Source of the DNA: Candidatus Omnitrophota bacterium
GTDB lineage: Bacteria > Omnitrophota > Gorgyraeia > Duberdicusellales > 4484-171
NCBI GenBank assembly: GCA_021735655.1
Contig: JAIPGM010000001.1
Span: forward strand, 32,001-96,000
Direction: 5' to 3'
Length of the DNA: 64,000 nt
The notes beneath the pieces are model-generated. The model ran no database searches. It had not been told where the DNA came from and worked only from the letters and a program-made list of their open reading frames with translations. Every line of letters starts with the position of its first letter. Within the stretch, counting starts at the first letter, position 1. Below are positions 21,375-64,000 of this stretch, piece after piece. The position numbers and the translations under genes are program-made.

Positions 21375-24300
21375 ATGGATCAAGCCACCAACAATCAGTC
21401 AGGACTATTTACCCAAATCCATAATCCGGCTTTTAAGCCTTGGATGCGTAAGGTAGCCTTTTTGGTTCTTTTTTGTTTTCTTTGGCAGGATATGGCCTCG
21501 GCTTATGGCCCAGATTTAGCTACTTCAATCCACACTACGCTTAGTCCTTATCAAACTCCAATCTATCGGCCCTTAGGCTTAAGTTATTTTATTGCTAGTG
21601 CTCCGGTCTATGCTCAAACGGCCGGTGGTAACTCTACTAGTATTTCTCCTAAACTTTCTGGTGGAACAGCGCCAGTGACTTCTTCGCCGAAAGTAAGTCC
21701 TGTAGCAGCTGGCAGTGGTAGCGGTGGGCAAGGTGGTGGAGCATCGGCTAAACCAAAGCCTCCGAATTCCGATACAGCGAAGCCATCAACACCTCCAAAA
21801 CCATTAAAGCCATCACAGCCAAAACCAGTAGCAGTTAAGCCCGGTAGCACTGATTGGGGTGCTGTTACTAGAGGTGCTACAGATGCTTTTAGAGCCGTAG
21901 CTCCAGTTACTACTACTGCACTTGAAGGTGTTGTAAGAACAACTGGAAGAATAGCACCTACGCTCATTGGTTCAGAGCCAGGCCAGGCTGGTAAGCCGAC
22001 TGGTTTTACAGAACAAGTCAGAAGGATCGGTTCAGACCTTGCGGATTCGATAAGTATTGCTGTTGAGAAAGTAGCTGCTAAACAGACATCAGTCGCTACT
22101 ACTTTTGAATCTGCTTTAGGAGAAAATTGGGCTCAAGCTCGTAGTCAAGGCAAGAGTGGTTTTGAAGCTAACCAGATCGGAGTAGTTAAGGGTATTGAGG
22201 CAGTTAAGCAGATAGAGGGAGCAGTTTGGGGTGGTTTTCTTGAACAGCATGTAACTTCACAAGTTCTTGCTGCACGAGAAGCTTTGCCTATCGCTGACCC
22301 AAAAATACTAGCTCTTATTGAAACAAATACTAACCGTAGGGTAGAGATTGCTGCTTTTGAGCATCTTAATCCAGGGCAAAGGATCCAGGCGGCTAAAATT
22401 GGTGGTCTGGCTGGAGGCGAACTTAAAATAGCCGCTAGTCAGCAGAAATTAGTTCTACCGCAACATTACGCTAATCCCGATAATGTATATAATCAAGTTG
22501 GCCAGCTAGCTGCTAAACTTAACGGTCGAGTTGTCTCAGCTGAAACCATGCATAGTGATATTAAGAGGCTAGCTATGGGCACGGCTCGTCTAGGCACTCA
22601 CGATTTAGCTACAATTTATACTCAAGATGGCATGATCAAGCCAGGAAGGACTGCAGCCGGAAACCCTAATGCTTTTTCAGTTGGCACCGATGGGTTTAAT
22701 CGAGAACGCACTCTTATAACTGGTAATGGTTTGGCTGATGCCACTCAAGCAAATCTTAATCCTTTAAGCGGTCTCGCCGCAGCTGGTTTAGTTCCAGCAA
22801 AGATGGTTAAAGCCGCGGCTCTTCAGAGAACTACGGAGACTTTTACTCGATCAACATCAGCTGTCGGTCAGAAATTTCAATGGCAAGTAAGTGGTTTAGC
22901 GAGTACTAATAAGTTAGCTCAGATCCATACTACTGATTTTAAAGTTGCTAATTTTGGCAGTAATCGTTTGACTAAATCGGTAGCTTTACCGACCCATTTT
23001 GACGGTCAAAAGGGTATATACGTTGGTGGGCACTTTGGTCTTAATCAGAATCAAATAGTTAACTTTCAGGATTTAAAAACTTATAATTTTAATCAAGGTC
23101 ATGGTGGATTTATTTCTCCTGATGGGACTAAGAAGATTACCTTCGACCGTGGTATTGCTGGAGTTGCTGGAAAGTCATCACCGGTAATTTTTAGCCAGGA
23201 ATTTAATAAAATTGGCAATAAGTGGGTAAAATCAACTGCTCATGAAACCACTTTTATGAATCCGTATAAATCCGGGTTTACTAATGATTTCTTTGGCAAA
23301 GGTGCTGAGAAGTTTGCTCCGGCCAGCATTGGAAAGTTTGTTGATTTTGGAAACTGGCAAGGTGTTAATAAAATGGAGAATTCCTTTTTCCACGGAGCCA
23401 CAACTCGTAACTCTGGATTTCAGGAGTTCCATCCCTTAGGTAATACTGGTATTGTTAAGATAGCTGATCCGCTTAAGAAGAATGGTTTACAAACTTTTAG
23501 AGCTGAGTTAGGCATAACTACAAAGCTTGCCCCGGATGGATCAAATTCTCCTTGGGCCACTAATGAGATTTTAAGGGTTGCTCGAATTACCCAGGCTGGA
23601 GAAAAGTTTACTTACCTTTGGCAAAAAGCTGGAGGCGACGACGGTTCTTCTACAATGCTTTTGGCTCGTCCCGGTAAAAGCTTAGGCAATTTAGCTGATA
23701 GCTCAATGATTAGCGGTAAGTTTTCAAAGGGCGAGTGGGAGTCACAGACCTTTTCTTTAAATCCAAGCCTTAATGGTCAGCTTGTTTTTGCTGGCAACAT
23801 GAAGGCTAAGCAATTGCAGGATGGAACCTTTAGCTGGACTGAGACTGCCCTTCCATGTTCTGGCGATAGTTGTGCTGCAAACAGCGGAGCAGCTAAACCA
23901 CAGTGGCAGTTTAATCCTACCGGTCAATTTAACGTTTACAATAACATAACTAACCCAGCTACCTTTCAAAAAATTATAAATAGCAATCAGGGTTTAGGCC
24001 AGCATTTGGCAGGTGTTAAAAATATCCAAAATAGCACTCTTCCGATAAATAATTTTTCGCCAACACCATTCTCGCCCGATTTTCTTGTACCGACAGGGGT
24101 CAAGCTAGGGCATCTTCCTTTTCAGTCTTCGGCATTTGAAAACGGAACTTTAAATACAGCTAAACAGGCCAATAGTGGTTTATTTATGCAATTGCCGAAG
24201 GGCTTTGAGAAAGTTCAGTGGATTGATATGAAGAGTAATAGTTTTGAGAGTTGGAGCACTACCTCTGTTCTTAAGCAGGCCAATGCTGATGTAAGAGGCG

Positions 24301-64000: not shown

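Follow-up and report, generated by a model that had tools for sequence, protein, structure and literature searches.

We analyzed a 64,000-nucleotide stretch of a Candidatus Omnitrophota metagenome-assembled genome (MAG; GenBank assembly GCA_021735655.1, contig JAIPGM010000001.1, positions 32,001 to 96,000), hereafter called the window. It contains an open reading frame (ORF) of more than 42 kb that begins behind a Tad-type pilus locus and continues past the end of the window. This single giant frame is real and is coding from end to end. An aptamer of the c-di-GMP-I (cyclic di-GMP) riboswitch family is located immediately in front of it, as one of four such aptamers within 21 kb, and the giant protein begins with a leader that is shared by giant proteins encoded behind the same locus in related genomes. 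Taken together, these observations incline us, with some reserve, to view the Tad genes, the secreted-protein genes and the giant gene as a single cyclic-dinucleotide riboswitch regulon, in which a conserved export leader is joined to a host-contact protein that diversifies rapidly. By itself the giant ORF leaves current knowledge unchanged, as Tad-linked Omnitrophota giants were described between 2022 and 2026; riboswitch control of a giant gene and the conserved leader have apparently gone unreported so far.

The giant open reading frame and its assembly

Translated from the ATG at 21375 onward, the plus strand gave 14,208 sense codons up to base 63998 and no stop codon, and the nearest in-frame stop on the 5' side is the TAA at 21360-21362. 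A first-pass annotation of this DNA, made by a model from the letters and their ORFs, had described such an uninterrupted frame running off the window and had suggested its translation as a check; both the frame and its upstream stop hold. The ORF (21375..64000, at least 14,208 codons) continues beyond the window, so that the length and domain content given here are lower bounds. Within the same stretch 1,029 and 1,960 stops occur in the remaining two plus-strand frames, and each minus-strand frame has between 597 and 1,091. The longest ORFs in these other frames and on the other strand are 101-198 amino acids (aa), the largest being antisense to a tandem repeat, in keeping with their earlier description as short. 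All of the genes in the window are located on the plus strand.

At 40% G+C, where 0.068 stops are expected per random codon, the probability of meeting no stop in the giant frame is ~1e-437. A codon-usage model was trained on eleven upstream genes and was used to score the stretch in fourteen 3-kb bins; the giant frame scored +0.23 to +0.52 bits per codon, and the other two frames were negative in all fourteen. The G+C content of third codon positions (GC3) was 0.23-0.31 over the full stretch. Because the codon scores and GC3 are uniform, the whole stretch looks like coding sequence of one genome. A chance ORF is ruled out by the above probability together with the codon-usage signal, and a repeat-driven pseudo-ORF is ruled out as well, given that just 510 bp of the giant ORF is repetitive. 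The 24 neighboring genes end in TAA (14 genes), TAG (6) or TGA (4); since all three codons terminate neighboring genes, stop-codon reassignment is excluded, as had been argued from the outset.

Seven proteins encoded in the window are identical to NCBI entries in the range MCF7907275-MCF7907296 (locus tags K9L86_00140 to K9L86_00245), which belong to a 'Candidatus Omnitrophota bacterium' MAG and lie on a contig of 341,261 bp, and K9L86_00245 is the gene immediately 5' of the giant ORF. The giant gene is thus already in this NCBI MAG, presumably as a hypothetical protein. An independent assembly of the same sample, Logan contig SRR12088349_1123 (79,101 bp), is 100% identical over the 14,420 bp compared; on that contig the giant gene is called from the same start, and its 8,612-residue product is truncated by the contig end. 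The contig stops near window position 47,210, inside a tandem DNA repeat (47142..47652, plus strand; periods of 18, 36, 51, 87 and 123) that encodes (AEKAAEAKKVAD)n at aa 8590-8760 and is the sole sizeable DNA repeat of the giant gene. As the independent short-read assembly ends there, continuity past ~47,210 rests on the window's own assembly. The copy number of the repeat is probably unreliable, and an error in it would keep the frame because all of the repeat periods are multiples of 3.

Riboswitches and a conserved leader

The aptamer preceding the giant gene is located at 21060..21253 on the plus strand, 120 nucleotides (nt) 5' of the gene, and was recognized by the Rfam GEMM-I model (c-di-GMP-I, RF01051) with 50.5 bits (E 7e-7), against a gathering score of 35 bits. 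The first-pass proposal of a c-di-GMP riboswitch at this place is therefore upheld. All four GEMM-I aptamers found within the 21 kb exceed this gathering score. The three others, each followed by a terminator and also on the plus strand, are located at 4517..4628 (38.7 bits), before an array of ~12 pilin genes; at 13196..13283 (58.0 bits), before the gene for a 442-aa secreted protein; and at 14782..14870 (38.2 bits), before genes for 499-aa and 698-aa proteins. The giant-gene aptamer carries an insertion of ~110 nt in its second hairpin. A segment at 14690-14725 (GGCGAUAAGAGCAAACCCUGAGUAAUUGGGGUC), ~90 nt upstream of the aptamer at 14782-14870, resembles the 5' half of a GEMM-I aptamer; that aptamer may be longer and contain an insertion, or the segment may be the remnant of a tandem aptamer.

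An 11-bp G+C-rich hairpin followed by a U-run (21241..21281, plus strand) forms the terminator in front of the giant gene, and the aptamer's 3' strand serves as the 5' arm of this hairpin (CCGGGCUACCG). The hairpin (21241-21270) has a calculated free energy of -22.6 kcal/mol, with z = -3.6. All four window aptamers share this layout: their 3' strand (GCCGGGYURCCGAA) also supplies the 5' arm of a strong hairpin with a U-run behind it, and the same overlap was present in all nine aptamers examined here and in related loci. With one strand shared between them, aptamer and terminator are mutually exclusive structures, and because they compete, ligand binding would prevent termination. We infer that the four switches are c-di-GMP ON switches.

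A GEMM-I-family aptamer precedes every one of the five giant genes examined, namely that of the window and those of four related contigs (L009-L012, described below). This aptamer is of the RF01051 type in L009 and L010. In L011 (11112-11222) and L012 (11085-11175) the best match was to the 'GGC' variant, RF03167 (c-di-GMP-I-GGC), which scored 62.8 bits and has a gathering score of 59. At the position equivalent to G20 of the Vc2 riboswitch, the window's giant-gene aptamer has a G (AAAGGCAAAC), as do all five of the aptamers located before giant genes, whereas in the aptamer at 13196-13283 this G is replaced by A (AAAAGCAAAC). A change of G20 to A in Vc2 and GEMM-Ib riboswitches allows binding of 3'3'-cGAMP (PMC6140456). 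Given this difference between the 13196 aptamer and the giant-gene aptamers, the locus may respond to two cyclic dinucleotides.

A promoter-like sequence, TTGACT-18 nt-TATATT with a TG extension (20990..21019, plus strand; 10 of 12 consensus matches), is located 40 nt 5' of the giant-gene aptamer. Sites of equal quality precede two of the other aptamers (4471-4500 and 13124-13153), so that TTGACT/TTGAAA-18-TATATT with a TG extension stands in front of three of the four aptamers, as judged by consensus match only. Downstream of the terminator, 40 nt before the giant gene's start codon, there is a G-rich motif, GGGGGAAAGGGGGAA (21321..21335, plus strand), that is unique in the window. In the form GGGGGAA(A)GGGGGA it is kept in three of the five giant-gene 5' leaders, being conserved in L009 (15455-15468) and L010 (13441-13454); it is degenerate in L011 and was not found in the 5' leader of the L012 giant gene. 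The motif may act as a ribosome standby site or bind a protein.

The giant protein itself begins with a conserved N-terminal leader (aa 1-45; 21375..21509, plus strand), and the five giants share ~40% identity over their first 65-85 aa. The N-terminus reads MDQATNNQSGLFTQIHNPAFKPWMRKVAFLVLFCFLWQDMASA|YGP and is made up of a ~20-aa extension, FKPWMRK, the hydrophobic core VAFLVLFCFLW, and then QDMASA|Y, which looks like a signal peptidase I site. With its ~20-residue extension, basic patch, hydrophobic core and AxA-type site, the leader resembles an extended signal peptide. Over ~80 aa the consensus for the five giants is sGiFn...FKPWMRxxAFxVLFCFxYQDxxSA, corresponding to 21375-21620 in the window and to stretches that run from 15514 in L009, 13488 in L010, 11336 in L011 and 12479 in L012. 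The leader has no match in Pfam or NCBIfam, and BLASTP found nothing alignable beyond it among the first 2,500-3,000 residues of the five proteins. This shared ~80-aa leader may constitute a dedicated extended signal peptide.

Neither riboswitch control nor the conserved leader is mentioned by Seymour et al. (2023), West-Roberts et al. (2023) or Nielsen and Lui (2026), and the words riboswitch and c-di-GMP are absent from the first and last of these. West-Roberts et al. bring in c-di-GMP only via PilZ and GGDEF, having noted PilZ genes 3' of giants and GGDEF domains within many of them (bioRxiv 10.1101/2023.11.21.568195). In the literature searched there was no paper that combined 'c-di-GMP riboswitch' with Omnitrophota.

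Relatives, domains and the upstream genes

Hundreds of proteins are 60-97% identical to the window's TadC, and the named ones all belong to Omnitrophota. We compared seven TadC-bearing contigs. Four of them (L009-L012) continue long enough beyond TadC for a giant gene to be visible, and all four have one behind the Tad locus. Their giant ORFs all end at a contig or locus end, so that the sizes are minima: at least 14,907 residues in L011, at least 7,776 in L009, at least 5,518 in L012, and an open frame of at least 2,480 codons in L010 (13428-20867). L009 also contains a 545-aa piece separated from the larger one by a 10-N scaffold gap. This gap (~17050-17100) is located inside a short repeat, and the 545-aa gene there bears the conserved leader; the two pieces probably represent one giant gene. 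In the remaining three contigs (L006, L007 and L008) either the contig ends or the genes diverge right after the Tad locus, and the giant gene is not readable there.

An IS200-like Y1 transposase gene (PF01797) is found in or right after the Tad locus of these last three contigs (L006 8208-8846, L007 8327-8974, L008 11037-11711) and not in the window; mobile-element flanks have been reported at giant-gene loci (Nielsen and Lui 2026, bioRxiv 10.64898/2026.06.07.730766). The L010 frame, located on a 429,878-bp ENA scaffold, is missing from the list of called genes, and the giant protein of the window is absent from both protein databases searched. Such resources may systematically lack very long genes.

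At the level of protein sequence, the sole stretch of the giant gene with detectable relatives is 55953..63989 (plus strand). With aa 13000-14199 as query, HMMER returned three relatives only (P0001-P0003) in an exhaustive comparison with 1.84 billion representative proteins, all three being 'partial' proteins from Candidatus Omnitrophota MAGs; P0001 and P0003 each span an entire contig of 7.8-8.2 kb. The three are collinear with aa 11527-14205 at 28-37% identity (P0003 being 37.5% identical to aa 11527-12094), their content further upstream differs, and one of them has an Rce1-like domain. The closest C-terminal relative is a fully open contig of 2,709 bp (L002; CAZNWL010000165.1), 59% identical to aa 12926-13855, which was the sole match when genome contigs were scanned with the last 1,008 aa. 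This contig is binned in a MAG labeled 'uncultured Planctomycetia bacterium'. We give the label no weight, since a short contig easily ends up in the wrong bin and all of the other relatives are Omnitrophota; L002 is probably such a case. A Planctomycetota origin is ruled out by the Omnitrophota identity of the window proteins and of the TadC relatives. Word-index protein searches with aa 1-1500 and aa 12,700-14,208 found no relative; since the exhaustive search did find three, the word-index database seems to contain neither the giant protein nor its relatives. Two JGI metagenome scans likewise revealed no relative of the giant protein.

Across the 14,208 residues available, sequence searches against Pfam, NCBIfam and the PDB yielded two domains only, both of which the first-pass annotation had named. 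One is a thioredoxin domain at aa 7581-7687 (44115..44435, plus strand), which exceeds the PF00085 cutoff of 23.5 bits with 58.1 bits (E 9e-16), has the active site WCGPC at aa 7605-7609, and is matched by 239 thioredoxins in the PDB. The other is an archaemetzincin-type (MEROPS M54) zinc-peptidase domain at aa 10960-11043 (54252..54503, plus strand). It scored 30.8 bits with Pfam Peptidase_M54 (PF07998; cutoff 24.4) and E 3e-12 with the NCBIfam archaemetzincin model NF033823, the latter being under the full-length cutoff and covering only the C-terminal half of the model. The zinc site HELGHLFGINH fits HExxHxxGxxH and is followed by a four-Cys cluster, C-x4-C...C-x2-C, of the kind that makes up the Cys4 second metal site typical of the family; the motif string is HELGHLFGINHECGCKTC...CKSC, that is, HELGHLFGINH-E-C-GCKT-C-IM...CKSC.

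Two further domain proposals fared less well. ATP-grasp-like domains are not borne out, as Pfam returned a single sub-threshold match in the 14,208 residues (ATPgrasp_ST, 16.8 bits against a cutoff of 31.4) and no stretch passes alone. The suggested GH-A-like domain would correspond to a conserved module at aa 12500-13030 (58872..60464, plus strand), in which AGQHTKN, NE.NYY and.E.G.SS are invariant in a 3-sequence alignment. Clan GH-A glycosidases are (beta/alpha)8 barrels in which the acid/base glutamate belongs to an N-E motif that follows strand 4, the nucleophile glutamate coming after strand 7, and NE.NYY (aa 12764-5) and.E.G.SS (aa 12888) resemble these strand-4 and strand-7 glutamates. 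Profile searches of Pfam and the PDB gave no match for the module, even at E<=10, and an AlphaFold model built on the 3-sequence alignment had a pLDDT of 43 and is unreliable. The module is a possible clan GH-A glycosidase.

The remainder of the protein was described by composition and hydropathy. The leader is followed by a Ser/Gly/Pro/Lys-rich linker and then by a stretch of ~4,000 residues (21510..33554, plus strand) that has no strongly hydrophobic segments and no match to a Pfam or NCBIfam family; this stretch is presumed to be located outside the cytoplasm. A single-sequence AlphaFold model of aa 481-1180, part of the supposed adhesin-like, beta-rich N-terminal region, had a pLDDT of 30 and was unusable. 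With hydrophobic segments defined by hydropathy alone (Kyte-Doolittle mean >=1.6 over 19 residues), the protein contains ~22 transmembrane-like segments, in line with the membrane blocks noted in the first-pass annotation. They are mainly clustered: there is an isolated weak segment at aa 4069, and the others are found at aa 6290-7510, 9488-9540, 10709-10765 and 11399-11945. The first cluster (aa 6290-7510; 40242..43904, plus strand) has ~10 segments and includes an internally repeated module (DNA repeat D3), and the second (aa 11399-11945; 55569..57209, plus strand) has ~8. The protein is essentially free of repeats, the exceptions being the small repeated membrane module and the AEK repeat (aa 8590-8760), which is rich in Ala, Glu and Lys, charged and helical-looking.

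The genes at 32..12895 (plus strand) are of the Tad pilus/secretion type and encode a T2SSE ATPase (cut at the window start), the pilin array, a TadE/G-like protein, and TadB and TadC (T2SSF), which confirms that the giant gene is located downstream of a Tad pilus locus. Just 5' of the window, the Logan contig encodes a Rotamase_2 peptidyl-prolyl isomerase (PPIase), RcpC, a secretin and a CpaE-like/T2SSE fusion. The pilin array (4683-8785) consists of ~12 small paralogous Flp-like genes of 52-206 aa with the N-terminal motif (K)AQS(I/T)LEY (class-III/Flp-type signal), one of which has a weak Class_IIIsignal match in Pfam; the same array is found behind the first riboswitch in L009, L010 and L011. 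Between TadC and the giant gene (13324-20800) there are four genes for signal-peptide proteins of 442, 499, 698 and 608 aa. These proteins are Ser/Pro/Lys-rich and of low complexity, and they have no family match; two have weak homologues in L006, and two of the window's four aptamers precede secreted-protein genes.

Proposed role, alternatives and comparison with known systems

We consider it likely that the giant gene encodes a c-di-GMP-induced, Sec-targeted, multi-pass membrane-anchored surface protein that is co-regulated with the Tad pilus and serves in contact with a host or prey, its function being suggested by context and by the literature. In the absence of c-di-GMP the terminator would form and transcription would halt before the 42+ kb gene; in its presence the aptamer would keep the shared strand and RNA polymerase would read through. 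In this way the Tad pilus, the giant protein and the accessory secreted proteins would all be activated by a single second messenger. Guided through Sec by its leader, the giant protein would be anchored by its many membrane segments with very large loops exposed, and would both contact the surface of a host or prey cell and attack it enzymatically. A role in contact and predation has been proposed in the literature for Velamenicoccus archaeovorus, and an adhesion or contact role here would agree with the published hypothesis for this class of proteins.

A transcript of >42 kb is costly, and whether it is made appears to be decided by a c-di-GMP riboswitch that stands before the giant gene and before the pilus genes. 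This placement predicts that the attachment machinery and the giant protein are turned on together, and the riboswitch offers a regulatory handle that can be tested in vitro for organisms that cannot be grown alone. A conserved leader on a hypervariable body points to a common export step, and could also serve as a tag to locate the real 5' end of a giant gene when an assembly is fragmented. If the proposal is true, a second messenger triggers the deployment of a fast-diversifying host-contact protein by way of a conserved export address.

Several points weigh against this proposal. The ON direction of the switches and the expression of the giant gene are predictions from sequence, and the membrane topology is derived from hydropathy alone. 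The two halves of the gene are joined across 47,142-47,652 by a single assembly, that of the window, and the 3' end lies outside the window, so that the full length and the C-terminal domains (possibly including SecA_DEAD) are unseen. Pfam gave no SecA, C39, HEAT, glycosyltransferase or dockerin domain in the 14,208 residues. With models at pLDDT 43 and 30, adhesion or degradation by the large unannotated parts is conjecture.

Four other explanations deserve weight. If two loci had been joined, or copies collapsed, at the 510-bp repeat, the true genes would have ~8,600 and ~5,500+ codons, a view favored by the end of the independent Logan assembly within the repeat, by 123-nt units whose 96% identity makes them difficult for short reads, and by the finding of relatives only for the portion 3' of the repeat. 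We hold such an artifact to be very improbable: a short-read graph is expected to break at this repeat even if the join is correct, both flanks are stop-free in one frame with equal codon usage and GC3, the periods would leave the frame unaffected by a copy-number error, the window holds no further copy of the repeat, and comparable giants are found behind the same locus in relatives such as L011. Rather unlikely, too, is a locus that is repressed by c-di-GMP or indifferent to it, with riboswitches that are OFF switches or unresponsive. The mutually exclusive aptamer and terminator seen in nine of nine cases are the ON-switch architecture of Cdi-2-4 from C. difficile, the G20-equivalent is kept in five of five giant-gene aptamers, and the induction of pili and adhesins by c-di-GMP is the general rule. 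What speaks for such a locus is that the direction of a riboswitch is not certain from its sequence, together with the 110-nt insertion in the giant-gene aptamer, the 'GGC' variant in two relatives, and the G20A change, linked to cGAMP binding, in one window aptamer.

The other two explanations concern the product. The giant may be a polyprotein precursor that is cut into smaller membrane or secreted proteins by its own archaemetzincin or by other proteases, instead of working as a single 1.5-MDa molecule. The intact metzincin motif, the mosaic and non-repetitive content with independent modules, and the recurrence of C-terminal modules in differing contexts in P0001-P0003 all point that way, and the same idea was raised for C39 and S8 domains by West-Roberts et al. 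(bioRxiv 10.1101/2023.11.21.568195). However, there is no evidence of cleavage sites and no established processing role for archaemetzincins, and peptides of V. archaeovorus do map to a giant ORF, which does not distinguish an intact protein from a processed one. We judge processing to be rather improbable; it would be compatible with a surface-anchored contact protein and does not exclude one. It is also unlikely, if slightly less so, that the protein is a structural coat or envelope scaffold of its own cell, or a membrane-tethered multi-enzyme metabolic platform, as opposed to a host-contact or prey-degrading device. The few recognizable enzyme domains and the lack of a proven lytic enzyme would suit a coat or platform, and many giants have been termed 'multi-enzyme metabolic clusters' (Nielsen and Lui, bioRxiv 10.64898/2026.06.07.730766). 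Against it stand the tight, conserved linkage and co-regulation with the Tad pilus, an attachment organelle, and the extreme sequence turnover outside the leader, as expected for a surface that meets other organisms, as well as the 3-fold higher level of giant-protein peptides in attached V. archaeovorus cells (PMC10066038).

The window gene is a further member of the published Omnitrophota giant-gene class, known from these tiny, probably predatory bacteria. ORFs of >20 kb were found in 77 of 116 Velamenicoccia species genomes, and in the type example, V. archaeovorus LiM, the protein has 39,678 aa and 42 helices (Seymour et al. 2023, PMC10066038). Omnitrophota proteins of up to 85,804 and 147,155 aa have also been published, which makes an earlier ranking of the present protein among the largest bacterial gene products known outdated, and 93.8% of complete Omnitrophota genomes encode at least one protein of >=10,000 aa. 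Size tiers differ between authors, with ORFs of >20 kb used by Seymour et al. and with >=10,000 aa ('large') and >=30,000 aa ('giant') used by West-Roberts et al.; the window gene, with at least 42,624 nt and at least 14,208 aa within the window, exceeds the >20 kb and >=10,000-aa thresholds. The locus described in front of such giants has >10 secretion or pilus genes, including gspD/E/F, rcpC, a Rotamase_2 isomerase gene and small class-III-signal genes (West-Roberts et al., bioRxiv 10.1101/2023.11.21.568195), and secretion or pilus flanks were reported at 13 of 14 of the largest giants (Nielsen and Lui 2026, bioRxiv 10.64898/2026.06.07.730766). Because its upstream locus matches the former description, the window gene belongs to the Tad-locus Omnitrophota giants, with which it agrees in phylum, size, upstream locus and numerous transmembrane-like regions. 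On their 3' side, giants of this class are described as having small PilZ genes and genes for sugar uptake or glycosidases.

Like these giants, the window gene is preceded by genes for a secretin, T2SSE, T2SSF, RcpC, a Rotamase_2 PPIase and small class-III-signal pilins, and its product shares their N-terminal signal, long domain-poor region, many transmembrane-like segments, weak conservation and scarcity of annotated domains, within a set of genes on a single strand. A SecA_DEAD/SecA preprotein-binding match, a feature of 'most' but not all members, was not found in aa 1-14,208. Neither named subtype fits, as the available part has no set of SecA_DEAD, HEAT, glycosyltransferase (GT) and NUDIX domains and no dockerin or TSP3 repeats. 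Of the 'Archaeovorin' set (glycosyltransferase, methyltransferase, glycoside hydrolase, peptidase, NUDIX, HEAT and TPR) the available part has only a peptidase (M54), next to the thioredoxin, and, unlike Archaeovorins, the window gene has no SecA_DEAD, HEAT, GT5/GT1, methyltransferase, NUDIX or GGDEF domain in 14,208 residues. The 'Dockerin-type' subtype is marked by many dockerin/EF-hand and TSP3 repeats and by an N-terminal part free of membrane segments; neither dockerin nor TSP3 was found in aa 1-14,208, and the protein showed no internal repeats of such a type. A thioredoxin and an M54 domain are in turn unmentioned for the published giants in both giant-gene preprints. Among proteins of >=10,000 aa, 137 of 916 were called 'Pfam-dark' (Nielsen and Lui 2026, bioRxiv 10.64898/2026.06.07.730766); the window protein resembles them in being sequence-unique and nearly domain-free over >14,000 residues, but two of its domains exceed thresholds, so that it is not strictly dark.

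For the regulation predicted here, the closest parallels are the c-di-GMP ON riboswitches of C. difficile, where Cdi-2-4 precedes pilA1 and Cdi-2-3/2-1 precede surface adhesins (CD2831), and of B. thuringiensis, where Bc2 precedes the collagen adhesin Cap. In those species, as in the window, an aptamer and an intrinsic terminator are located 5' of genes for pili or large surface proteins; the second messenger of the sessile, attached state induces the genes in those species and is predicted to do so here. The C. difficile switches are of class II, whereas the window aptamers are of class I (RF01051), with the GGC variant RF03167 in relatives. Also unlike either species, the window has four switches in one 21-kb locus, a regulated gene of >42 kb, and an ultra-small, putatively episymbiotic bearer.

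The leader finds a counterpart in the extended signal peptide region (ESPR) carried by very large exoproteins of the autotransporter and two-partner-secretion types, in which ~20 N-terminal residues are conserved on passengers that vary. The window leader is likewise a ~20-residue extension before an otherwise ordinary putative signal peptide on a huge protein, but it matches no Pfam or NCBIfam signal family and its motif, FKPWMR...QDxxSA, differs.

Among Gram-negative bacteria, the giant repetitive adhesins LapA, SiiE and MpIBP and the giant ORFs of Chlorobium chlorochromatii consist of tens to hundreds of tandem Ig-like or RTX repeats, are exported by type I secretion and have no membrane segments, and display of LapA is governed by c-di-GMP. 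Unlike these, the window protein is non-repetitive except for one 170-aa repeat and has ~22 hydrophobic segments. It would nevertheless resemble them, those of C. chlorochromatii included (Seymour et al. 2023, PMC10066038), as a very large surface protein for attachment.

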